NCBI GenBank assembly: GCA_017484065.1
Contig: JAFUTX010000031.1
Location: 98,581-162,580, forward strand
Origin: Bacilli bacterium
Lineage (GTDB): Bacteria; Bacillota_I; Bacilli_A; RF39; UBA660
Direction of reading: 5' to 3'
Length of the DNA: 64,000 nt
The notes beneath the pieces were generated by a model. The model was not told where the DNA came from. It saw nothing but the letters and a program-made list of their open reading frames with translations, and made no database searches. Every line of letters begins with the position of its first letter. Positions within the stretch are counted from its first letter, which is position 1. Shown here piece after piece: positions 7,613-64,000 of this stretch. Both the position numbers and the translations under genes were made by a program.

Positions 7613-8325
7613 ATAAATCTCTCCAAATACATTGCTAACATTACTAAGACTATAGTTAAACTATTATGAAATATATGTATTGTCATAGATGTATAAATAT
7701 TATCAGTTTCATAATAAGCTTTAGCAAAGTAATAACCAAGGCCACTATAAGAAACTATATATAATAATTCTATATAATTACCACTTTGTATAGAGGATAT
7801 CATATGTATAGATCCAAATATAAGTCCTGTAACTAAGCAAAATAGTTTTTTATTATTAAATATTTTTCTGAAGTTAGCTCTAAATACTAATTCTTCACAA
7901 ATTGGTCCAATTAACATAACTGATAGAATAGATGAAATAGGGCGAGCAGTAATCATTGCTCTATTAGCAGCTTCATTACTAGCTATATTACCAACTACTG
8001 TTAATATACAAGCATTACATATTATCATAAATAAAAATCCTTTACCCCAGTTTTTAAATACTGCTTTTATATTCGTTTTAAAATTTTTAAAAAACTTAGG
8101 TAAGGAAGTAGCAAGTTCTTCCCAAAATATTACTGAAAATACACACAATAATATTAAATATATTTCAAGCCTAGCTAAATCAGCAAGTATTGTATTAGAA
8201 CTATTATATGCCTTATAAAATAGAGGTACAATAAATGAGGGTAAAAATATATATAATAATATTAAAATAATTGCTAAAATAAACCTAAATATCTTTTTTT
8301 CTATAATATCTAACATGTTAATCAA
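7609..8325 (-). CDS. CPBP family intramembrane glutamic endopeptidase (CAAX protease/Abi-like)
   Basis: EELVFR and FGxxH motifs in polytopic membrane protein; 4-nt overlap with downstream gene. Confidence 0.75.
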   Translation of the reverse strand: MINMLDIIEKKIFRFILAIILILLYIFLPSFIVPLFYKAYNSSNTILADLARLEIYLILLCVFSVIFWEELATSLPKFFKNFKTNIKAVFKNWGKGFLFMIICNACILTVVGNIASNEAANRAMITARPISSILSVMLIGPICEELVFRANFRKIFNNKKLFCLVTGLIFGSIHMISSIQSGNYIELLYIVSYSGLGYYFAKAYYETDNIYTSMTIHIFHNSLTIVLVMLAMYLERFI

Positions 8326-9133: not shown

Positions 9134-12100
9134 TTTAAAAAGATTAGGTATTGGTTTATTAAGTACAATACTTTTTGCTAGTTTTACTGGCGATGTAAAA
9201 GCTGGTACATGTGCAGATTATTCTCAAAGTTTTACAGTCACTGAAACTGGTGGAGCAAGCGGAATCACATCTCAAAATACTTATCAATCAAATTCCAATG
9301 GAAAATATCAATATTGGAACTATAGTGTTAAGTACAATGGTGGGAGTGGAAGTATTTCAGGTGTAGGATTCTGTATTGACCCTGCTAAAAGTGGTTGGAG
9401 CGGAACAGGATACTGTACAAGAGAGGTTAATCCATATGATTCAAGTAATGGAGTTAATGTTCAAAGATTTGATAGAGCTTTAACTTATTTATATGATAAA
9501 TATGCATATAACATTACTTCTAATAGAGAATTAGGAGATTTAACAGTTAAATTAATAACTTATTATTATGGTTTAGGAGAAAGCAATAATTCTTCTAATA
9601 ATACTATTAATTGGGGACCTTATAAATTAAGACATGAAACATTCTTAAAATACAGAAATAATGTTGGATATTCTGCTACTGATAAGAATGCACCTTTGTA
9701 TGATACTGCTAATAGCAATTATACAAAAGCATTATCTTATGCTAAAGAATCTGTAGAATATGCAAATAATGATGCAAATTGGACTACTATATCAAGTGAA
9801 AATATTGCATATATAAAAGATAAAGGTATAACAGAAAAAAATGCTGCAAATGCAAGTCAAAAAAGTAGTGAAGACTTATACTGGGCATTTACTGACGCTA
9901 GTGGTAAAGAAATTAATGCAACAAAAGCTGGAAATGTGTATGATTTAGGTGGATATACTGGAGAGTTTACTGCAACTGCTTATTTAAGAATACCATTTGT
10001 TGAAAAGCTAGCTTCAAATTATGAAACTGCATTAACAGCAGCAAAAAATATGTTTAATTTTAAATGTGATAATTCAACATGTCAATTAAGTAATATTACA
10101 AGTGTTGGAAATAAAAAATATATACTTGTAGGTATTTCTGTTAAAGGTAATACATCAACTTATAATGGTGGTATTGGTTCATTTAATGATACTAACAACT
10201 CTGCTTCTATACAATCTAAAGGTAATATTGTAATATTAAATTCAAAAAATGTTGATACTGGAAATCAAGGTACAGGAATGCAACGTTATGTATTCTTCTT
10301 AAACAATGAAATTAAAAAGAATGCTGATGGTAATAAAATTGCTGATATAATATTACCAAAATTACAAAGTGGTTGTAGAAAAGATGAATCTACTGGATTA
10401 TGCTATGGTCCAGATGGAAAAACTATAAGTTGTAGTGAATATGAAAAATATTGTCCATCAACTTGCTATATAAAAGATGGTAAATATTATGTATCAAATG
10501 GTAAAGAAGTTACGGAAAGTGAATATTTAAAACAATGTCCTATGACTTGTAAAGTCGAAACTGACGTAACTACAGGTAGAAAAATATATCGTGGTCAAGA
10601 TGGTAAAATAGTTGATGAAGCTACTTATAATACTCAATGTAAAAATGATAATGGACCTCAATGTGAAGTAAAAAATGGTAAATATTACATTGATGGTAAA
10701 TCAGTTAGCAAGAAAAAATACGAAGATGAATGTCCTTGTAGTTCATACATAAGAGCAGTAGATGCTTGTTATGAACCTGGTGATGCAGATAGTAAGAATT
10801 ATGACACTATCGCTGCTAAAATTTATGGACCTAGAAATGTAAAACAATGTTTCTTCCCAGATGGTGTAGAATTAAGTGATGATTCTAATAAAAAGGATGA
10901 AGCAAAAAATACATATAAACTATCAAATACTGATGAAGCAGTAGGAGTATTAGAAAATAAATATTGTGCTGTTTACTGTAAAGAAGATTATGTATTTGAA
11001 TATCCAAATGTTAAATATGGTAACCAAGGTGAATATTTCAAATTAAAATTAAATATTACTGGCGAGAAAACATGCTACGAAAAAGTAGATGTTGATAAAT
11101 TTAATAGTGATGTTGCAACACAACAACAAAAAGTTGTAGATGCTTATAATAAGTATTCTGCATTCAAGAAAATTAGTGATGCTTATAGATCATCTAGCAA
11201 AAATAGTTGTGGAGGAGCTTCATTTACTACATATTTTGATACTTATAACGTTAGTGGTAATAGAACTAGTAATACTGCTACAGTTAAAGTAGGTAAAGAT
11301 GAAAGTGAATTATTTGGTTGTGTAAGCGTTGCTGATTATCCAGATAGTTATCAATTTGCTGATTCAAACTCATTAGATAGTAAATTAAAAGCTACTAAAG
11401 AAGAATTTGACACAGCTAAAAAAGAATTAGATAAGATGTTAGAAGACATTGAAGACTGTATTCCAGAATCTGCTAAATCAGGTGGATGGGATGATGGTAT
11501 CAATGATAAATATACTACTTGGTATGATCCTGAAGTAAGTTATACTTACGATACTGAATACAAAAATCAAAAGGATATTACTATAGCTAAAGATAAAAAC
11601 TTCTCTGAGAATATCGATGATGATCAAGAAGTATGGTCATGTAATGGCGAAAGTAATAATTCATTAACAAGTTGTAATGGTACAAAATCTGATAAATTTA
11701 CATTTGATAGAAATCGTACATTTATAAACTGTACTGATAACGGTTGTTCAACTACTAGAAAAGATGTCCCAACAACTAAATACTATAAAGTAATTAGTTC
11801 AGTAGATGCTGATTATACAAGTAAAACACTATATAAATCTAGATATCCTGATGGTAAAACAACAAATACTGATATTAAAAATGATTATGAAATTAAAGAT
11901 AATTATAAAAACTTAGTTAATGGTGTTCCAATTCATATTGAAGAAACTGATGGATTACATAAATATTCAATAAACATTGACAACTTAGGACGTTATTACG
12001 ATAAAGATAAAGGTGATTTAGGACGTTTAATTGGTGGAAGTAAGAGTGTTTATGATAAATTTGATTTAGATAGTGAATACGTATGTAGTTACGATGTTAA

Positions 12101-56156: not shown

Positions 56157-56229
56157 ATATACTCTATATTTTATCTTGCATAAATAGATAATTGTGTTAG
56201 AATATTTGGCAAGAGAGGAGTTATTATTT

Positions 56230-56664
56230 ATGAAGAGTGGAAAAATTATTATAGCAAGTTTATTAGCAGTATTTTTACTAACAGGATGTGCATCTAAAGA
56301 ATCAAAATTAACTTGTACTCAAACAACTAGTGGAGTAGATGTAATATTTATTGTTGATTTTAAAGGTAATGTAATTGATAATATGGATATTAATTATAAT
56401 ATGGATTTATCTAAATATTCAGATGCTCAAATAGAAGCAGTAGGTAAACAAGATTTTTGTTCATCAGTAAAAAATGCTTTTGGTTCATATAAAGAAGCTT
56501 TTAATAATTGTAAGCAAAATATAGCTGATAAGAAATTAGAAGTAACTGCTGATTTAGAAATTGAAAAAGTTTCTGATAGTATTCTTGATAAATTAGCATC
56601 ACCTGAAGCTGCTAAAGAAGAATTAGAAGACGAAGGTTATACTTGTACATTAGAAACAAAATAG
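56230..56664 (+). CDS. YehR-like lipoprotein (DUF1307); ATG 56230 with RBS preferred over 56194
   Basis: lipobox LTGC, conserved Cys pairs. Confidence 0.5.
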   Translation: MKSGKIIIASLLAVFLLTGCASKESKLTCTQTTSGVDVIFIVDFKGNVIDNMDINYNMDLSKYSDAQIEAVGKQDFCSSVKNAFGSYKEAFNNCKQNIADKKLEVTADLEIEKVSDSILDKLASPEAAKEELEDEGYTCTLETK

Positions 56665-56752
56665 TTTTAATTAATAATAATTGATAGATTGAAATACATC
56701 TATCTTTTTTTGATTTTTAAAATATGATAAGATGATATTAGGTGAAGTTCTG

Positions 56753-57481
56753 ATGGATTTTAATAGAGATTTAATAGTACGTAAAATAACTTTACAAAGG
56801 GATAAAATAGAATCATTTGATAAGTATCCATTTAACATTGAAGTTATTAAAAGTTTCAATGAATTAAAGTTTGACAGCCAAGTTACTTTTCTAGTTGGGG
56901 AAAATGGAGTAGGTAAATCAACATTTATAGAAGCTTTAGCAGTAGCTCTAGGTATGCCAGCTGAAGGTGGAACTAATAATTTTAGGTATGAAACAAAGAA
57001 TACTACATCAGAATTATCGGATTATTTAATAGTTAGTTTATATAACAAAGCTAAAACAAAATTTTTCTTAAGAGCAGAGAGCTTTTATAATTTTTGCAGT
57101 GAAGTAGATAATATTAGGGCTACGTGTTACTATGGTGGAAGTTTACATGAATGTTCTCACGGAGAGTCTTTTATTCAATTAATACAAAATAGATTTTCTG
57201 ATCATGGATTATATATTTTAGATGAACCAGAAGCGGCATTATCTGCACAAAGACAATTATCACTTCTTTGTTTAATTGATCAATTAGTTAAAGATGGAAG
57301 TCAGTTTATAATAGCTACTCACTCTCCAATTTTAATAAGTTATCGAGATGGTAAAATCTTAGATTTAAATAATAATTTTAAAGAGATTAAATATGAACAA
57401 ACTGATATTTATACTTTATATAAAATGTATTTAGATAATCCAGATGCAATGCAACATAGATTATTTGATACGTATGATTAG
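56753..57481 (+). CDS. standalone ABC/AAA_21-type ATPase (Walker A GENGVGKST)
   Basis: P-loop, Q-loop, signature-like and Walker B DEPE; RBS AGGTGA 8 nt before ATG 56753. Confidence 0.6.
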   Translation: MDFNRDLIVRKITLQRDKIESFDKYPFNIEVIKSFNELKFDSQVTFLVGENGVGKSTFIEALAVALGMPAEGGTNNFRYETKNTTSELSDYLIVSLYNKAKTKFFLRAESFYNFCSEVDNIRATCYYGGSLHECSHGESFIQLIQNRFSDHGLYILDEPEAALSAQRQLSLLCLIDQLVKDGSQFIIATHSPILISYRDGKILDLNNNFKEIKYEQTDIYTLYKMYLDNPDAMQHRLFDTYD

Positions 57482-57959: not shown

Positions 57960-59159
57960 ATGAATGAGATTAAATGTCCTAAATGTGGAACAGTATTTCA
58001 AATAGATGAAAGTGATTATGATTCTATTGTTAAACAAATAAGAGATAAAGAGTTTGCTAAAGAATTAGAAGCTCATGATAATTTACATAAACTAGATAAA
58101 GAAAGTGCAATTAAAATAGCTTTAAATAATCTTGAAAAGAACTATAATGAAAAGTTAAAACAAAATGAAATAGAAATAAATGAATTGAATAATAAATTGA
58201 AATTACAAGAAACAAAAAATGAACTAGCTATAAAAGATGCATTATCTTTAAAAGAAAAAGAAATAAGTTCACTACAAAATAAATTAGAATTAAGTAATAA
58301 TGAGTATTTAATTAAAGAAAAAAATTTAAAAGAAAGTTATGAAGAAAAAATTAAAACTAAAGATGAACAAATATCTTATTATAAAGACTTTAAAGCTAAA
58401 CAATCTACTAAAATGATAGGAGAATCTCTAGAAGTACATTGTAGTACTGAATTTAATAAATTAAGGCCATTATTTAAAAATGCTTACTTTGAAAAAGATA
58501 ATGATGTTAAAACTGGTTCTAAGGGAGATTTTATATTTAGAGATTATGATGATGATAATACTGAGATAGTTTCTATTATGTTTGAAATGAAAAATGAAGC
58601 CGATGAAACTGCTACTAAACATAAGAATGAAGATTTCTTTAAAGAATTGGATAAAGATAGAAAAGAAAAAAAGTGTGAGTATGCGGTATTAGTATCTTTA
58701 CTAGAAATTGATAATGATTATTATAATAATGGAATAGTGGATGTATCTTATAAATATGATAAGATGTATGTTATACGTCCTCAATTCTTTATTCCTTTAA
58801 TAACTTTAATAAGAAGTTTGGCAATTAATTCATTAACTTATAAAAAGGAATTACAAGTAATTCAAAATCAAAATATAGATATATCTCATTTTGAAGAAAA
58901 TATGAATGCTTTTAAAGAAGGGTTTAGTAGGAATTATCGCTTAGCTAGTGAAAAATTTAATAAAGCTATTGAAGAAATAGATAAAACTATTGATCATTTA
59001 CAAAAAACTAAAGATGCTTTATTATCAAGTGAAAACAATCTAAGATTAGCTAATAATAAAGCTGAGGATTTATCAATTAAAAGATTAACTAAGAATAGTG
59101 AAACTATGGCTAAAATGTTTGAAGAACTACATAGTGATGAAGAAAAAGTTAAAATATAG
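57960..59159 (+). CDS. DUF2130 protein (N-terminal zinc ribbon CPKCG, coiled coil, C-terminal globular domain)
   Basis: 399 aa. Confidence 0.55.
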   Translation: MNEIKCPKCGTVFQIDESDYDSIVKQIRDKEFAKELEAHDNLHKLDKESAIKIALNNLEKNYNEKLKQNEIEINELNNKLKLQETKNELAIKDALSLKEKEISSLQNKLELSNNEYLIKEKNLKESYEEKIKTKDEQISYYKDFKAKQSTKMIGESLEVHCSTEFNKLRPLFKNAYFEKDNDVKTGSKGDFIFRDYDDDNTEIVSIMFEMKNEADETATKHKNEDFFKELDKDRKEKKCEYAVLVSLLEIDNDYYNNGIVDVSYKYDKMYVIRPQFFIPLITLIRSLAINSLTYKKELQVIQNQNIDISHFEENMNAFKEGFSRNYRLASEKFNKAIEEIDKTIDHLQKTKDALLSSENNLRLANNKAEDLSIKRLTKNSETMAKMFEELHSDEEKVKI

Positions 59160-59249: not shown

Positions 59250-60419
59250 ATGTACCGTAAAACATATGCAACAATCGATGGTAATATTTTAAAAGAGAAT
59301 ATAAATAAAATAATTAATAAATATAATAGTTATCAATATTATATTGGAGTAGTTAAGAATAATGCTTATAATCACGGAATGTATGTAGTTAATGATTTAA
59401 TAGCAGGTGGTATCAATTATTTAGCAGTAGCAAATTTTGATGAGGCTTTGCATGTACGTAAATACAATATAGAAATACCAGTTCTTTTATTAGAACCAAT
59501 AGATATAGAATATATTTATGATTGTATAAATAATAATGTTACCATAACTATTGAAAGATTAGATTATTTAAAAAAATTGATTGAATTAGATTTAAGAGAT
59601 GATTTAAAAATACATCTAAAAATAGATAGCGGTATGAACAGATTAGGATTTAAAACTAAGGATGAGATTAATACATCTATCAAACTAATTAATGAAACAA
59701 ATCATTTAATCTTAGAGGGCATTTATACTGATTTTGCTACTAATGGTATTAATGATCCTTATTGGGATATTCAACTTTCTAATTTTAAAGAGTTAACTAG
59801 TGATATAAACTTAAAAAATATTCCTATTGTCCATTTAGGAAAAAGTGAAACTTTGATTCATCATGATAAAATAGGTTTTTGTAATGGAGTAAGACTTGGA
59901 TTAATTATGTATGGTATTGTTCCTTCTTATGATGAAGGTGGCTTTTTTAAGAAAACTAAAAGAAATATAAGAATAAAAAAATATGATATTAGTGATACTT
60001 ATTTAAATAGTGAAATAGATTTAAAAACTGCTTTTATATTAAAAAGTGAAGTAATGAGTATTAGGCATGCTAATGTTGATGAATTTGTCGGATTTGGCGC
60101 TCATATTAAAGTAGTAGATGATATGAATATCGCAACAATTCCTGTAGGTTATGCAGATGGTATAGATAAAAAATATAATGTTGTATCTATTAATAATGAA
60201 TTATGTGATATTCTATCTGATTCAATGGATATGTTAATGGTTAAAGTTAATGATAATGTTAAAGTTGGAGATGAAGTAGAAATATTTGGTAATAATATTA
60301 ATATAGATTCAGTAATGTCTACATTAGATATAGATGCCTATCATTTGTTTAATAATATCACTACTAGAGTACCGAGATTACATTTAAGAGATAAAGAAAA
60401 AGAAGAAGTCAAATATTAA
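59250..60419 (+). CDS. alr: alanine racemase
   Basis: PLP-Lys motif VVKNNAYNHG, 389 aa. Confidence 0.9.
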   Translation: MYRKTYATIDGNILKENINKIINKYNSYQYYIGVVKNNAYNHGMYVVNDLIAGGINYLAVANFDEALHVRKYNIEIPVLLLEPIDIEYIYDCINNNVTITIERLDYLKKLIELDLRDDLKIHLKIDSGMNRLGFKTKDEINTSIKLINETNHLILEGIYTDFATNGINDPYWDIQLSNFKELTSDINLKNIPIVHLGKSETLIHHDKIGFCNGVRLGLIMYGIVPSYDEGGFFKKTKRNIRIKKYDISDTYLNSEIDLKTAFILKSEVMSIRHANVDEFVGFGAHIKVVDDMNIATIPVGYADGIDKKYNVVSINNELCDILSDSMDMLMVKVNDNVKVGDEVEIFGNNINIDSVMSTLDIDAYHLFNNITTRVPRLHLRDKEKEEVKY

Positions 60420-60437
60420 ATAAACTTCTTCTTTTAT
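60401..60437. terminator. bidirectional terminator between alr and lexA
   Basis: AGAAGAAGT..ACTTCTTCT stem + T-tract. Confidence 0.65.
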
Positions 60438-60443
60438 ATTGAT

Positions 60444-61076
60444 TTAAAATTTACGATATAAGCCAATAGCTTTACCAAGTATTGTACATGTATCTAGTAT
60501 TATAGGAGCCATAGTATCATTTTCTGGTTGTAATCTAATGTGTCCATCTTCTTTATAAAATGTTTTTAGTGTAACTTCATTTTCAGTAGTCATTGCAACA
60601 ACCATATCACCATTACGAGCTACTCTAGATCTTTCTACTATTACATAATCTCCATCCAATATACCAGCATTAATCATACTCGTACCACTAACTTCTAATG
60701 TAAAAACTTCTTTTTTCTTAGGAACTAATGCAGCTGGTAGGTCAAAAAATTCATTTGGCCTTTCAATAGCTTCAATAGGTAATCCTGCAGTAACTTTACC
60801 AAGTAAAGGAACTTTAACAACGTTTTCATCTTTTTCTAAATATTCATTGTCAACAAGTATTTCAATTGTTCTAAATTTTGAATTAGCTTTTTTGATATAT
60901 CCAGCATCTTCTAATTTTTTTAAATGTGTATGTACTGTAGCAGGACTAGACAATCCTAATGCTGCGCATATTTCTCTGATAGCAGGAGGGTAGCCATGAG
61001 TAGCACTATATTTTTTTACGTAGTCTAATACCTCAGTTTGTTTAGCAGTTAGTTCTTTTTTTACAAAATTAACCAT
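60444..61076 (-). CDS. lexA: LexA repressor (ATG 61076 with AGGTGA RBS; ORF-track 61157 is an upstream extension)
   Basis: wHTH + S24 peptidase with Ala-Gly cleavage site context and Ser/Lys dyad (GTSM..K). Confidence 0.9.
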   Translation of the reverse strand: MVNFVKKELTAKQTEVLDYVKKYSATHGYPPAIREICAALGLSSPATVHTHLKKLEDAGYIKKANSKFRTIEILVDNEYLEKDENVVKVPLLGKVTAGLPIEAIERPNEFFDLPAALVPKKKEVFTLEVSGTSMINAGILDGDYVIVERSRVARNGDMVVAMTTENEVTLKTFYKEDGHIRLQPENDTMAPIILDTCTILGKAIGLYRKF

Positions 61077-61121
61077 TATTTCATCACCTATATGTATATT
61101 AACACAAAAAAATGTAAAGGT

Positions 61122-61135
61122 CAAACATTTGTTTG
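61122..61135. promoter_or_regulatory. Cheo-type LexA box 1 (CAAACATTTGTTTG)
   Basis: palindrome AAAC-N4-GTTT read directly between divergent lexA and small ORF. Confidence 0.5.
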
Positions 61136-61144
61136 AAAATGTTA

Positions 61145-61176
61145 TTGACACGAACAAATGTATTATGATAATATCA
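61145..61176 (+). promoter_or_regulatory. promoter TTGACA-17-ATAAT region overlapping LexA box 2 (CGAACAAATGTATT, 61151-61164)
   Basis: TTGACA 61145-61150; GAAC-N4-GTAT half-degenerate box inside spacer. Confidence 0.45.
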
Positions 61177-61197
61177 ATTTGAAAGAAGGTAAGTTTT

Positions 61198-61338
61198 ATG
61201 GAAAAAGTAATTAAAAAATATTTTGGAGTAGTATTATTCTACTTAACAATTATCGGCGGTATACTTCTACTAAATGAAAGATTTAGTTTAATTAATAGCC
61301 AAAATGTTAATAATGAAATCTCCATAATGCAGAAATAA
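61198..61338 (+). CDS. 46-aa single-TM protein divergent from lexA (candidate SOS-induced division inhibitor, SosA/YneA-like)
   Basis: RBS GAAGG 8 nt upstream; MEKVIKKYFGVVLFYLTIIGGILLLNERFSLINSQNVNNEISIMQK; not in ORF track. Confidence 0.35.
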   Translation: MEKVIKKYFGVVLFYLTIIGGILLLNERFSLINSQNVNNEISIMQK

Positions 61339-61418
61339 TGCATTTTTTTTATGCTTTATACCTTAATTCGACAAAATATTTAACATTCATCTGATATAGT
61401 AAAGATGGTGATAATAAT

Positions 61419-61835
61419 ATGAGAAATTTTTATATGTTTAATATTTCAGATGAAATAGCTATTTTAACAAAAAATAATCCTTATAATTTGTTTAAAGTAT
61501 TTGAGAATATCTATTATTTAGATAAAGATGAATATAATACTGCTATGGATGTATTAGAACAAATTACTTTACCTATGGAAAAAGAGGTAATCAAAGATAA
61601 TATATTAGCTAAATATAAAGATAACGACTTTTATAGTGTCGTTAATAATAAACATACTTTTAATAACTTGTATTTAGCTGAAGTTACTAACCTTTATGTT
61701 AAATCTACTTATCTTTTATTAAAATCTAGTGCTATAAGACCAGTATTCTTTAAAGAATTACAAGATATTAGTAATCTATTTATTTGTGATTTTGAAAACA
61801 AAGATTACTTTTGGTTAAAAGAACTGGCTATATAA
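61419..61835 (+). CDS. hypothetical protein (138 aa)
   Basis: ORF only. Confidence 0.3.
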   Translation: MRNFYMFNISDEIAILTKNNPYNLFKVFENIYYLDKDEYNTAMDVLEQITLPMEKEVIKDNILAKYKDNDFYSVVNNKHTFNNLYLAEVTNLYVKSTYLLLKSSAIRPVFFKELQDISNLFICDFENKDYFWLKELAI

Positions 61836-61836
61836 T

Positions 61837-62757
61837 TTAAACTAATTCATATTCTCTAGATATAATTCTTTCATCGCTAGAGTATTTAACTATGTACTTA
61901 TTATCTTTTCTTACTAGGATAATACCAATAGTTTTATCATGATTAATCTTTTTAACATTAGTATCTATATAATTCATATAAACTTGTATTTGTCCTAAAT
62001 GTTCTTTTTTTAATTCAGTTACTTTTAGTTCAATAACAACGTAACAATTATATTCAATATTAAATAGCAGTAGATCGATGTAATTAAAAGTATTACCTAT
62101 CTTTATTTTATATTCGTTACTAACATAGGTATAACCAGATCCAAGCTGAGATAAGAAATTATCTAAATCATCAAGTATTGTTTCTTTTAATACATATTCC
62201 TTAATATGTTCTTTATCTTTAATATTACTACTTTTTATAACTATGGGATTAGGTACTAAATCAGTAATAGTAGTATCTTCTTTATTAATTAATTTTAATT
62301 TGGTTTCATCATCTAATCTTTCATATTCTTTTAATTTAATTCTTTCGTGTAGTTGTCTTTTGGAAATATTTTTTATTGATATTTGTTTTATATAGTAATT
62401 TATCTTATTAATATCTTTTAATGGTAGTAAAAGTAAGCAATGACTCCATGTTAAATGTGGCGCCAGCGGTGCCACTTTCTCATTAGAAAAAACTAAATAA
62501 AACTTTCTTATTTTATACAAAGTACTTTTATCATATTTTCTACCAACCTCAGTAATTAGTTTTTCAGCATATTTTCCAATAATATTATTGCCATAATGTT
62601 TACCAGCTTCTGCTAACATTTTACCTACGTCATAATAAGTTTCTAATCTATGTCTTTCTTTAGACATATCTTTTATAGCACTATAAGCTATATCTTCAAG
62701 TAATCTTTCTTTTATTTCACTATAATAATTATCTTTTAATTTGCTTGTTTTATTCAT
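61837..62757 (-). CDS. DUF1016/YhcG-like PD-(D/E)XK nuclease family protein, tandem copy A
   Basis: 306 aa; C-terminal E..D..ELK nuclease core (IDLLLFN..VVIELK). Confidence 0.6.
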   Translation of the reverse strand: MNKTSKLKDNYYSEIKERLLEDIAYSAIKDMSKERHRLETYYDVGKMLAEAGKHYGNNIIGKYAEKLITEVGRKYDKSTLYKIRKFYLVFSNEKVAPLAPHLTWSHCLLLLPLKDINKINYYIKQISIKNISKRQLHERIKLKEYERLDDETKLKLINKEDTTITDLVPNPIVIKSSNIKDKEHIKEYVLKETILDDLDNFLSQLGSGYTYVSNEYKIKIGNTFNYIDLLLFNIEYNCYVVIELKVTELKKEHLGQIQVYMNYIDTNVKKINHDKTIGIILVRKDNKYIVKYSSDERIISREYELV

Positions 62758-62808
62758 TGTGTTATCCTCTTTTCTAATATTTAGTAAATCAACTTAACCC
62801 CTTTATTT

Positions 62809-63726
62809 TTAAATTAATTCATATTCACGAGATATAATTCTTTCATCGCTAGAGTATTTAACTATGTACTTATTATCTTTTCTAACAAGGATTATACCTA
62901 TAGTTTTATTATGATTAATCTTTTTAACTTTAGTATCTATATAATTCATATAGACTTGTATTTGTCCTAAATGTTCTTTCTTTAATTCACTAACCTTAAG
63001 TTCAATAACTACATAACAATCGTATTCAATATTAAATAGCAGTAAATCTATGTAATTAAAAGTATTACCTAGCTTTATTTTATATTCACTTTTTATAAAG
63101 GTGTATCCCGCACCTAATTGTTCTAAAAAATCTTCAATATTATCTACTATTAATTTTTGTAATGCCTTTTCCTTTATTGTTGCCAATGAATTAGTATTTT
63201 TTATAATAATAGGATTGGGTACTAAATCAGTAATAGTAGTATCTTCTTTATTAATTAACTTTAATTTAGTATCATCATCTAACCTTTCATATTCTTTTAG
63301 TTTGATTCTATCTCTTAACTGTCTTACTGATAAATTTTGCTTATTAACTAAATTAATATAATAATTAATAGCTGATATATCTTTTAGAATTAATAATTCT
63401 GAATAGTGGCTCCAAGATAATCTGGTCGACAATGTCGACCATTTTTGATGAGTACTAAATAATAAATAAAACTGCCGATATCTTCTTAATGTACGCTCAT
63501 TATATTTTTTATCAATCTCATTCATAAGTTTGATAGAATAGTTTTTAATAATACCTTCTCCGTAACGTTTGCCAGCATTAGCTAACATCTGACCTACATT
63601 ATAATAAGTTTCTAAATCGCTTTTGTTTTTGCTGTAATCTTTAACTTTATTAGTTATTTCATTATTTAATAATTGATTTTTTATTTCATTATAATAATCA
63701 TCTTTTAAGTTTTTTGCTTTATTCAT
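62809..63726 (-). CDS. DUF1016/YhcG-like nuclease family protein, tandem copy B
   Basis: 305 aa; C-terminal 120 aa nearly identical to copy A. Confidence 0.6.
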   Translation of the reverse strand: MNKAKNLKDDYYNEIKNQLLNNEITNKVKDYSKNKSDLETYYNVGQMLANAGKRYGEGIIKNYSIKLMNEIDKKYNERTLRRYRQFYLLFSTHQKWSTLSTRLSWSHYSELLILKDISAINYYINLVNKQNLSVRQLRDRIKLKEYERLDDDTKLKLINKEDTTITDLVPNPIIIKNTNSLATIKEKALQKLIVDNIEDFLEQLGAGYTFIKSEYKIKLGNTFNYIDLLLFNIEYDCYVVIELKVSELKKEHLGQIQVYMNYIDTKVKKINHNKTIGIILVRKDNKYIVKYSSDERIISREYELI

Positions 63727-63777
63727 TTTGTTATCCTCTTTTCTATAGTTTAGTAAATCAACTTAACCCCTTTATTT

Positions 63778-64000
63778 TTAACTTAATTCATATTCTCTAG
63801 ATATAATACGTTCATTGCTAGAGTATTTAACTATGTACTTATTATCTTTTCTTACTAGGATTATACCAATAGTTTTATTATGATTAATCTTTTTAACATT
63901 ATTATCTATATAATTCATATAGACTTGTATTTGCCCTAAATGTTCTTTTTTTAATTCAGTTACTTTTAGTTCAATAACAACGTAACAATTATATTCAATA
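63778..64000 (-). CDS. DUF1016/YhcG-like nuclease family protein, tandem copy C (3-prime part only; runs off window)
   Basis: nucleotide near-identity to the 3-prime ends of copies A and B. Confidence 0.5.
   Translation of the reverse strand, partial: IEYNCYVVIELKVTELKKEHLGQIQVYMNYIDNNVKKINHNKTIGIILVRKDNKYIVKYSSNERIISREYELS

Follow-up and report, generated by a model that had tools for sequence, protein, structure and literature searches.

A mosaic tandem array of DUF1016/YhcG-type nuclease genes in a Bacilli bacterium and the covarying palindrome inside its divergent blocks

Results

Three Tandem Genes of the DUF1016/YhcG Family

The DNA analyzed here, referred to below as the window, is a stretch of 64,000 nucleotides (nt) from contig JAFUTX010000031.1 of a Bacilli bacterium. 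Its last 2.2 kb (GC content 25%) hold, on the minus strand, a tandem array of genes for DUF1016/YhcG-type nucleases, which is studied here together with the palindromes found inside these genes. The copies of the array are named A, B and psi-C, whereas D, E and F are paralogs located elsewhere and L-numbers denote the fetched contigs or loci. The array consists of the following parts:

61837–62757, minus strand: gene A, an intact DUF1016/YhcG-type nuclease of 306 amino acids (open reading frame (ORF); identical to NCBI MBR1414208.1)
62758–62808, minus strand: 51-nt spacer/leader with a ribosome-binding site (RBS) before gene A, GGGGTTAAGTTGATTTACTAAA..AGAAAAGAGGATAACACA ATG, near-identical before all six paralogs, other loci included
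62809–63726, minus strand: gene B, an intact DUF1016/YhcG-type nuclease of 305 amino acids (ORF; identical to NCBI MBR1414209.1)
63727–63777, minus strand: 51-nt spacer/leader with RBS before gene B, near-identical in all six paralogs
63778–64000, minus strand: 3' end of psi-C, the last 73 codons and the stop (YhcG_C match, E 1e-17)

The first-pass annotation of the window had described three co-directional minus-strand genes with a unit of about 970 bp, and start-to-start spacings of 972 and 969 bp agree with this. Its estimate that the final ~300 nt of each gene and the RBS-containing spacers are ~90% identical in DNA also held, the spacers being 51 nt long. A leader of ~45 nt with the RBS is common to all six paralogs. 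The remainder of psi-C lies about 0.7 kb past the window edge, and gene A is the transcriptionally last member of the array. Since the spacers contain an RBS and the terminator scan found no sense-strand terminator between the array genes, psi-C, B and A are probably read as one transcript from a promoter before psi-C.

The assignment to the DUF1016/YhcG family of PD-(D/E)XK nucleases, already proposed from the letters of the window, was confirmed by the Pfam scores and the catalytic motif. Protein A matched DUF1016_N (PF17761) with 81.3 bits (E 9e-23) and YhcG_C (PF06250) with 114 bits (E 8e-33), and protein B with 82.7 bits (E 3e-23) and 115.2 bits (E 3e-33), respectively, the gathering cut-offs being 32.8 bits for DUF1016_N and 32.5 bits for YhcG_C. 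The E-D-E(I/L/V)K catalytic motif of the YhcG family, described by Kosinski et al. (PMC1189080), is intact in both proteins as E215, D228 and E243-L-K245 (at about 62023–62115 in A), and its columns are conserved at 98–100% across 108 homologues. Both proteins also matched the PADLOC PDC-S02 hidden Markov model PDLC04807 (E 1.8e-59 for A and 1.2e-59 for B).

The AlphaFold2 (AF2) model of A (pLDDT 84.8) has helices in residues 2–166 and a strand-rich core in residues 208–304. The protein is thus predicted to combine a mainly alpha-helical N-domain with an alpha/beta nuclease fold, as is characteristic of the family. The C-domain resembles the structures of EndoMS/NucS, Cas4-like proteins and MGME1 (5gke, 2vld, 4r5q; Foldseek E about 0.01, TM about 0.25–0.33). 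Meanwhile, Pfam gave a NucS_C match to the C-terminal domain (E 5e-4), and the only match in a sequence search of the PDB was a marginal one to Cas4 (E 0.011).

A Palindrome at a Fixed Codon inside the Divergent Blocks

The N-terminal blocks in which the copies differ contain GC-rich inverted repeats made of rare codons, and such repeats were seen in nearly all homologues. Those of the six paralogs are as follows:

62457–62475, no strand assigned: palindrome of A, GTGGCACCGCTGGCGCCAC, degenerate, with 7 of 9 Watson-Crick pairs, one G.T and one A.C
63423–63441, no strand assigned: palindrome of B, TGGTCGACA-T-TGTCGACCA, perfect 9-1-9
L001 7025–7041: palindrome of psi-C, TTGCGACA-G-TGTCGCAA, 8-1-8
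Paralog D: TCCCGACA-C-TGTCGGGA, 8-1-8
Paralog F: TGAACGCA-C-TGCGTTCA, 8-1-8
Paralog E: CACTCA-C-TGAGTG, 6-1-6

The palindrome of A, which has the form GTGGCACC-G-CTGGCGCCAC with two defects, sits at the family-wide position six codons before W104 and folds as DNA with −6.1 kcal/mol (z −1.6). That of B folds with −8.1 kcal/mol (z −3.25) and is the sole perfect palindrome with at least 40% GC and an arm of at least 7 in the 64-kb window.

The statistics of the palindrome were anchored on the conserved Trp codon and not on the palindrome itself. It is centred on the first position of the codon that lies six before W104. Of 105 genes, 64 had perfect arms of at least 8, compared to 6 of 10,500 synonymous recodings of the same peptides with the codon usage of the family, and 72 of the 105 had their longest perfect palindrome at this site. 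With 37% GC, the segment stands out from genes of 22% GC, and it uses the codons TCG, GCG, CCG and GTG, each of which makes up just 5–13% of its synonymous set. Although the position is fixed, the sequence is not: 95 of 107 palindromes were distinct. In an ungapped alignment, 92.9% of the cells were paired versus 56.8% in shuffles, a value reached by none of 500 shuffles. Both sides had changed in 279 cells, the covariation score was 0.76 versus 0.18, and a slid partner left 26–46% paired.

In the AF2 model, the peptide encoded by the palindrome is a loop (residues 90–102) between two helices and the least confident part of the N-domain. Judging from this model, the protein evidently tolerates a loop sequence dictated by the DNA. 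The identity of the palindromes follows that of the N-domains, and no faster-than-neutral divergence was seen in close pairs.

With up to 3 mismatches allowed, no paralog's palindrome had a further copy in the window or the related contigs outside the genes themselves. An internal half-site recurring in the gene's own promoter was considered and rejected: psi-C, D and E all have the upstream TTCGACA repeats, which show no covariation with the palindromes. It should be noted that the promoters of these three lead genes share the direct repeat TTCGACA-N4-5-TCGACAA and a TGTTATAGT -10-like box (L001 6640–6700; L083 about 9890–9960; L088 about 1960–2030). Mutual information between the bases of the palindrome and protein columns pointed to Y81, K77, K82, L108, K133 and H137, a signal inseparable from shared ancestry in the 83 related sequences used.

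The Palindrome Recurs across the DUF1016 Family

Eighteen further homologues with 23–62% identity were sampled from Proteobacteria, Acidobacteriota, Bacteroidota, Cyanobacteria, Actinomycetota, Campylobacterota, Clostridia and Fusobacteriota. All 15 distant genes with a locatable L-x-W-x-H motif, from at least six phyla, had the palindrome, with arms of 8–16 bp and the centre on codon position 1, exactly four codons upstream of the motif. The genes of Burkholderia and Acidisarcina contain a YhcG-like insert of ~40 residues and were hence missed by the motif search; they have perfect palindromes of 12-1-12 and 15-1-15, respectively, at the homologous place.

The yhcG gene of E. coli K-12 (L090) has CCAGACA-A-TGTCTGG at the homologous place, a second repeat of the GCAGAC type and a 33-nt perfect palindrome, AAAGATTTGGCAGAC-GCT-GTCTGCCAAATCTTT. 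The first and the 33-nt palindrome lie at 8136–8150 and 8205–8237 of L090, and counted within the gene the three occupy nt 309–323, about 347–361 and 378–410. The 33-nt one folds as DNA with −16.9 kcal/mol (z −7.4). One half-site is repeated in three palindromes of this gene, and the half-site GCAGACA is shared between the genes of the E. coli and Burkholderia proteins, which are 62% identical.

The outer arms of the palindrome are conserved as ATTG...CAAT(TG). Their 3' bases CAA-TTG are retained in actinobacterial genes of 64–69% GC, where TTG/TTA make up 2–8% of the Leu codons and CAA 0–13% of the Gln codons. The dyad symmetry together with the conserved outer arms therefore indicates a constraint at the nucleotide level on the symmetry and on part of the sequence. 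In the sequences compared, the position and the dyad symmetry of the palindrome are shown to be conserved across the whole DUF1016 family. No Rfam family matched positions 61000–64000 of the window at E of 1 or lower, and E. coli yhcG gave only a spurious 21-bit match to a miRNA. No description of an intragenic palindrome was found in the searched papers that name DUF1016 or YhcG, and the element appears to be undescribed.

DNA Element, Antisense RNA or No Function

In 93 of 107 genes of the Bacilli clade, an A-T pair adjoins the centre, which leaves a single-nucleotide loop; the same applies to most of the distant homologues. Such a centre is unusable by a folded hairpin and usable by a duplex dyad, and therefore it points to DNA. 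Mismatches are symmetric, with 13 of the G.T type and 15 of the A.C type in the clade and, by a hand tally of single mismatches, 4 and 3 among the distant genes. The palindrome is also strand-neutral, and these sequence features point to a DNA element.

A different role is suggested by the surroundings of the palindrome in the AT-rich clade. There, read on the antisense strand, it could act as RNA, either as the intrinsic terminator of a cis-antisense RNA or by blocking antisense read-through, and in this way control the mRNA of a potentially toxic nuclease. The terminator scan returned 6 sites versus 0.5 expected, four of which are the palindromes described here and three of these four are antisense. 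On the antisense strand, the palindrome of B is followed by TTTTT (63424–63450) and that of A by TTTCT (62457–62485), and at least 5 A within 8 nt 5' of the palindrome were present in 85 of 105 clade genes. In B, a sigma-70-like antisense promoter with 11 of 12 consensus matches lies about 215 nt upstream of the hairpin:

63180–63450, plus strand: candidate antisense unit in B, TTGCCA-16-TATAAT (63180–63207) with the palindrome and TTTTT ~215 nt downstream (consensus matches only)

A cis-antisense RNA of ~235 nt from this promoter is conceivable from such matches. However, the high-GC homologues have the palindrome with no T-run on either strand, which excludes a family-wide role of this kind, and no excess of G.U-compatible mismatches was seen on either strand. 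In addition, the mostly single-nucleotide centre cannot serve as a hairpin loop, the A-run doubles as conserved Glu-Lys codons, promoter-like sites are not enriched (24 versus 33 expected), and A has no comparable promoter. Antisense control, as well as its likening to type I toxin-antitoxin systems, which would hold by analogy, thus seems unlikely to us, although an antisense terminator could be a local role of the palindrome in the AT-rich clade.

It is also conceivable that the palindrome has no function and perpetuates itself in a tolerant loop. Template-switch correction of quasi-palindromes is an established mutational mechanism, and such intrastrand switching would mimic covariation. 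The encoded peptide does belong to a surface loop modelled with low confidence and varies more than any other part of the protein (identity 0.30), the palindrome drifts at about the neutral rate, and A tolerates two defects. Self-perpetuation does not, however, account for the same codon position and phase in at least six phyla or for the outer arms ATTG...CAAT(TG), whose CAA-TTG is kept at 64–69% GC although these codons are 0–13% of their synonymous sets there. The window contains no other GC-rich palindrome of such size, and E. coli yhcG holds three related copies. We therefore regard a functionless palindrome as improbable, more so than antisense control, and a DNA element as the better explanation.

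The Genes of the Array Are Mosaics

The divergent and near-identical segments of A and B, by coordinates, are as follows:

62353–62667, minus strand: divergent N-terminal module of A (amino acids 31–135), the core of the helical DUF1016_N, 44–51% amino acid identity to B and psi-C
63319–63636, minus strand: divergent N-terminal module of B (from the comparison of segment identities)
62224–62372, minus strand: homogenized interdomain linker of A (about amino acids 130–178; core IKLKEYERLDDETKLKLINKEDTTITDLVPNPI; repeat family D3), 85% identical to the linker of B
63190–63338, minus strand: homogenized linker of B (repeat family D3)
61836–62135, minus strand: homogenized nuclease core and 3' end of A (repeat D2), 90% identical to 62808–63107
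62808–63107, minus strand: homogenized nuclease core and 3' end of B (repeat D2)

Among the array copies, amino acids 1–30 are intermediate (69–81% nt identity) and amino acids 31–135 divergent (~60% nt and 44–51% amino acid identity). Identity rises to 87–97% of nt over amino acids 136–175; in amino acids 176–210, B diverges and A is 95% identical in nt to psi-C; amino acids 211–306 are 88–93% identical in nt. The corresponding amino acid identities of A and B are ~50% (1–135), 90% (136–175), 45% (176–210) and 89% (211–306). The psi-C copy has a third distinct version of amino acids 31–135, and from amino acid 136 on its DNA is 93–97% identical to the non-adjacent A and not to B. The claim of the first-pass annotation that the N-terminal halves diverge thus applies to amino acids 31–135, but the genes are not built of two halves: they are mosaics in which the linker (136–175) is alike again.

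Synonymous divergence (dS) between A and B was 1.5 in amino acids 31–135, 0.58 in 136–175, 1.27 in 176–210 and 0.41 in 211–306. For this pair, dS was thus 1.3–1.5 in the divergent segments 31–135 and 176–210 and 0.4–0.6 in the homogenized segments 136–175 and 211–306. Between A and psi-C it was 0.02–0.16 in the homogenized segments, with 0.02 in amino acids 136–175. Differing protein constraint cannot yield values from 0.02 to 1.5 along one gene; the pattern is therefore, as read from the sequences, one of gene conversion or recombination between the paralogs and not of protein constraint alone. No sign of diversifying selection was found in amino acids 31–135, where the Nei-Gojobori dN/dS was 0.28–0.44, although dS near saturation makes this test weak.

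We then compared A, B and psi-C with 105 homologues of other genomes (108 sequences in total). In amino acids 31–135, each copy was 60–67% identical to copies of other species and 44–50% identical to its array neighbours, which ranked 49–105 of 108. In amino acids 136–175 and 211–306, the array copies were mutual nearest relatives, with 88–95% identity versus at most 80% to others. Between species, the linker varies about as much as the N-domain does (column entropy 1.37 versus 1.48). As it is variable across species and near-identical within the genome, concerted evolution and not family-wide constraint must account for its similarity. The idea of diversified duplicates therefore fails for the divergent blocks, since these are nearer to other species than to each other; the comparison shows them rather as old retained lineages under purifying selection, the remainder of the genes having been homogenized by conversion. 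Of the earlier picture of a conserved catalytic module with diversifying recognition modules, the shared nuclease module with different N-modules remains, the dN/dS values do not support "diversifying", and a recognition function of the N-domain is putative.

Exchange reaches beyond the array. In the six paralogs, amino acids 31–135 are 41–58% identical and the linker is 82–97% identical in DNA in every pair, while segment 176–210 occurs in three types that span the loci: one in A, psi-C and E, one in D and F, and one in B alone. Since the segment types and the linker are common to separate loci, exchange must occur between loci too. The excess of within-locus similarity was about 0 (−0.05 to +0.07) at amino acids 73–136 and +0.1 to +0.56 over most other residues. 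The palindrome lies near the middle of this unhomogenized zone. A within-genome excess of similarity combined with heterogeneous synonymous divergence, as found here, is characteristic of a multigene family in concerted evolution, to which the array belongs.

Taken together, these comparisons show that conversion, also between non-adjacent paralogs, maintains near-identity within the genome in the leader, the initial ~30 codons, the linker and the nuclease core. They likewise show a block of ~100 residues of the N-domain that escapes homogenization, each such block carrying, at a fixed codon, a covarying GC-rich palindrome of its own.

Plain recent tandem duplication, with purifying selection keeping the 3' halves alike while the 5' halves drift and with no conversion or modularity, would agree with the higher family-wide conservation of the C-terminal domain (between-locus identity 0.71 versus 0.55). 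It is nevertheless very improbable, because synonymous divergence varies 3- to 70-fold between segments of one gene pair, the non-coding spacers are conserved too, the linker is variable between species and 82–97% identical in nt among the six paralogs, and the nearest relatives of the divergent blocks are in other species. Duplication without diversification, which the first-pass annotation had named as a possible refutation, is thus contradicted by the dS, nearest-neighbour and six-paralog comparisons alike.

Antisense ORFs of 50 and 86 amino acids (MGLGTKSVIVVSSLLINFNLVSSSNLSYS...; window 62243–62395 and 63101–63361, plus strand) overlie the homogenized linker in every copy. They are hydrophobic, resembling type I toxins, and are probably shadow ORFs of the conserved sequence.

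The Array Closes at a Third, Inactivated Copy

The end of the window was extended by exact-protein look-up of contigs from independent samples. Contigs L001 and L083 match it at 99.99–100% and show psi-C as the last unit, followed by a unique promoter region and the divergent yneF upstream. With the sequence past the 64-kb edge included, the array has three units, psi-C, B and A, one of them dead, and the expectation of at least three copies continuing beyond the edge did not hold, as the array closes at the third. The full psi-C was read at L001 6748–7661, with an identical copy (100%) in L083. Its start codon is changed from ATG to ATT, and a 1-nt deletion in an A-run ends the reading frame past residue ~217, which makes psi-C a pseudogene. 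A third assembly, L085, is 99.2% identical over psi-C with four gaps and has the same truncated gene call of 169 amino acids, and gene callers give psi-C only as this 169-amino-acid DUF1016_N fragment in all three assemblies.

The order psi-C, B, A was assembled in three samples (L001, L083 and L085; contigs of 31.6, 213.7 and 113.2 kb), and a 2-kb contig of a fourth sample (L002) agrees with it. Although short-read metagenome assembly, from which the sequence comes, is prone to errors at repeats of ~1 kb, an expanded or chimeric repeat is hardly credible given this agreement between samples, units that differ by 7–40% depending on the segment (at least 7–10% even where most alike) and so are not collapsible duplicates, and analogous arrays in dozens of other metagenome-assembled genomes (MAGs); the assembly artefact feared in the first-pass annotation was not borne out.

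Further Paralogs and Arrays in Other Genomes

At least three further paralogs, D, E and F, were found by protein search and contig look-ups. D (304 amino acids) lies 9 kb past the array on the same 213.7-kb contig (L083) and adjoins KilA-N, RhuM-Fic and Ku-LigD genes and a WXG100/DUF4176 cluster. E (303 amino acids) and F (311 amino acids) stand in tandem, as a second pair, on a different contig of the same samples. The accessions MBR1414208, MBR1414209, MBR1414219 and MBR1413095 fall within the NCBI numbering range of one MAG, and D, E and F are probably in the same genome as the array.

Tandem arrays of 2 to ~8 copies were common in 80 loci of other species, mostly MAGs labelled as gut "Bacilli", "Tenericutes" or Erysipelotrichaceae. 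Locus L032 has ~8 units, L061 4–5, L033 4, and L021, L031 and L048 3–4. Many arrays hold frameshifted or N-terminally truncated members, and DUF1016 arrays are, by this sequence record, a birth-and-death family in uncultured gut low-GC Bacilli. Clustering of the paralogs itself is already known, as noted for Rickettsia, with 5 YhcG paralogs in two clusters (PMC1189080) and YhcG duplicates in R. felis and R. bellii (PMC4316617).

In other MAGs, an N-terminal-only remnant that ends 10–20 codons past the palindrome often closes the array (L003 7836–8213, L004 3832–4131, L048 8692–9012, L059 4630–4947 and L067 11925–12840). The frameshift of L067 is located at the palindrome itself, and the palindrome may be a fragile site.

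Genomic Context of the Array

On one side, the array is flanked by sirA, lexA and alr, and past the window edge by yneF and genes for a 520-amino-acid secreted protein, a Schlafen-like ATPase, a short-chain dehydrogenase/reductase and a helix-turn-helix protein. It is inserted in a lexA–(46-amino-acid ORF)–sirA ... yneF neighbourhood (window 60444–61835), which we take to resemble the lexA/sirA(yneE)/yneF region of B. subtilis. This position is not conserved in the related loci fetched, among which only L025 has a DUF1016 gene beside lexA. A scan for the LexA box (GAAC-N4-GTTC, at most 1 mismatch) found none in 60000–64000, lexA included, nor in the three lead-gene promoters; no sign of SOS control was thus seen despite the nearby lexA.

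The ~20 kb past the edge contain genes for the Schlafen-like ATPase, KilA-N, RhuM-Fic, Ku-LigD and WXG100-type proteins as well as four paralogous secreted proteins of ~525 amino acids, and by this gene content look like a variable or conflict island. In L083 10001–20915, 9–20 kb past the edge, D is followed by KilA-N, a RhuM-Fic fusion, a 270-amino-acid protein, an ATP-dependent ligase with Ku, and small WXG100/DUF4176 proteins. The four paralogous proteins (~520–531 amino acids; L001 4705–6267, minus strand; L083 6685–8274 and 8264–9859; L088 333–1925) have no Pfam domain, are 40–54% identical and each lie beside a DUF1016 locus. Their N-terminal membrane anchor ends in G-(V/T)-T-Y-(A/S)-L-W and resembles a SipW-type signal. 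A protein of this type is also encoded near the DUF1016 gene in L044 and L076, which come from other MAGs.

Inside the window, an ATPase of the AAA_23/SMC_N type (249 amino acids; 56732–57481, plus strand) matched PADLOC mad3, AriA, PtuA and GajA (E 1e-17 to 1e-10) while being much shorter than these models. A 156-amino-acid ORF (56194–56664, plus strand) lies directly upstream of it. Between the ATPase region and alr, a DUF2130 protein of 399 amino acids is encoded (57960–59159, plus strand; Pfam E 5e-93), which carries a zinc-ribbon-like CPxC motif at its N-terminus and includes a long coiled coil.

Restriction-modification (RM) genes, whose presence the first-pass annotation had suggested checking, were not found: no hsdM, hsdS or hsdR lies beside the array. 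Meanwhile, DUF1016 homologues of Serratia, Aeromonas and Acaryochloris are embedded in type I RM loci, DUF1016 genes often stand between hsdM and hsdS, and they are enriched beside phase-variable RM genes (PMC9881135). The repeats of the array are all direct, with no inverted copies, and none of the genes called up to about 10 kb to either side encodes a recombinase, unlike in a shufflon with programmed inversion or site-specific cassette switching. DUF1016/YhcG genes are widespread, with at least 8,000 matches listed in one protein search and 504 plasmid records with a homologue. A role in genetic conflict, whether defence or competition between mobile elements, is plausible from this distribution and context; defence as such is a candidate role only, through the match to PADLOC PDC-S02.

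Discussion

The findings can be combined into one scheme. Each paralog would join the same nuclease engine to a different specificity module, and the palindrome would be a cis-acting DNA element, a dyad operator or an extrudable cruciform, read together with the N-module. In the simplest form of the scheme, the dimeric product of the gene would bind its own dyad or cruciform, for autoregulation or for self-marking and self-recognition. The reader and its site, placed in the same ~300 bp, would stay linked while their surroundings are exchanged, and selection against hybrids with mismatched reader and site would keep exactly this block unhomogenized. We consider the modular reading, conversion with retained blocks and the covarying palindrome, taken together, to be a rather probable account of the array. 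Recognition of the palindrome by the nuclease of its own gene is a more tentative part of it, which we regard as possible and somewhat doubtful. It is suggested, indirectly, because E. coli yhcG repeats its half-site three times and shares GCAGACA with Burkholderia. The nuclease core, which is of a NucS/Hjc-like kind that acts as dimers on distorted or branched DNA, would lead, likewise indirectly, to the same idea.

Several observations weigh against this scheme. That the palindrome tracks the identity of the N-domain is also predicted by descent alone, and the only covariation of its bases with residues outside the loop is inseparable from shared ancestry. Since gene A is intact despite the two defects of its palindrome, perfect pairing can be dispensed with. 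That the product binds the palindrome of its own gene is purely what we infer. The array has no adjoining RM genes, and the one PDC-S02 gene tested so far (preprint; E. coli B with T4, T5 and T7) was not among the four protective candidates. Finally, the placement of E and F in the same genome rests on shared samples and NCBI accession numbering.

If self-recognition is true, each gene carries its cognate site within the sequence of its specificity domain, and reader and site form an unbreakable cassette. This would explain why exactly this block resists homogenization in the arrays. It would also make these genes a new kind of self-referential nuclease gene, for which autoregulation, self-marking or homing of allele against allele would be possible, and would give a first functional handle on a family present in thousands of genomes and RM loci, E. 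coli K-12 yhcG included. DUF1016 genes often travel with type I RM operons and mobile elements. The arrays of gut low-GC Bacilli evolve as modules, with the shared engine homogenized and a protected variable block kept apart. The array alone is of moderate interest; the intragenic palindrome is most worth following up, since it makes a domain of unknown function testable in E. coli K-12.

Among the known systems, the closest in architecture is E. coli YhcG (PF17761 and PF06250, COG4804). Both share the two-domain architecture, the E-D-E(I/L/V)K motif and the helical N-domain, and E. coli yhcG likewise carries an intragenic palindrome. YhcG has 375 amino acids versus ~305 here, and the array proteins have neither its ~40-residue insert after the palindrome nor its C-terminal tail. 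Moreover, the reference E. coli yhcG is single-copy, whereas the DUF1016 genes here are multi-copy and tandem. In this respect, they resemble the YhcG clusters of Rickettsia, in which several DUF1016 paralogs are clustered in a small genome; the papers on these (PMC1189080, PMC4316617) make no mention of a mosaic, concerted evolution or a palindrome. PD-(D/E)XK nucleases of the NucS/EndoMS and Cas4 types gave the best structural and sequence matches of the C-terminal domain, but the likeness is weak and limited to the nuclease core, and the N-domain of the array proteins is unrelated to theirs.

The pattern of exchange recalls the HsdS genes of type I RM systems, in which conserved segments flank a variable specificity block and copies of the same genome exchange, as here. 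A further link is the frequent location of DUF1016 genes inside type I RM operons. Unlike HsdS systems, the array consists of direct repeats with no invertase or recombinase, hsdM, hsdS or hsdR nearby. In addition, compared to HsdS switching, exchange in the array is deduced from sequence mosaics, and the variable block is a putative determinant of DNA specificity.

For the palindrome, the best comparisons are structured DNA sites. The attC sites of integrons and the ends of IS200/IS605 elements are sites whose shape is conserved while their sequence varies, and parS within B. subtilis spo0J is a binding site inside the gene of its binding protein. In common with these, the dyad of the palindrome is kept by compensatory change while its sequence drifts, and the site is embedded in coding sequence. 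The palindromes here have no integrase, TnpA or ParB partner. Unlike parS, the palindrome differs in sequence from gene to gene, and unlike attC, it lies inside an ORF at a fixed codon.

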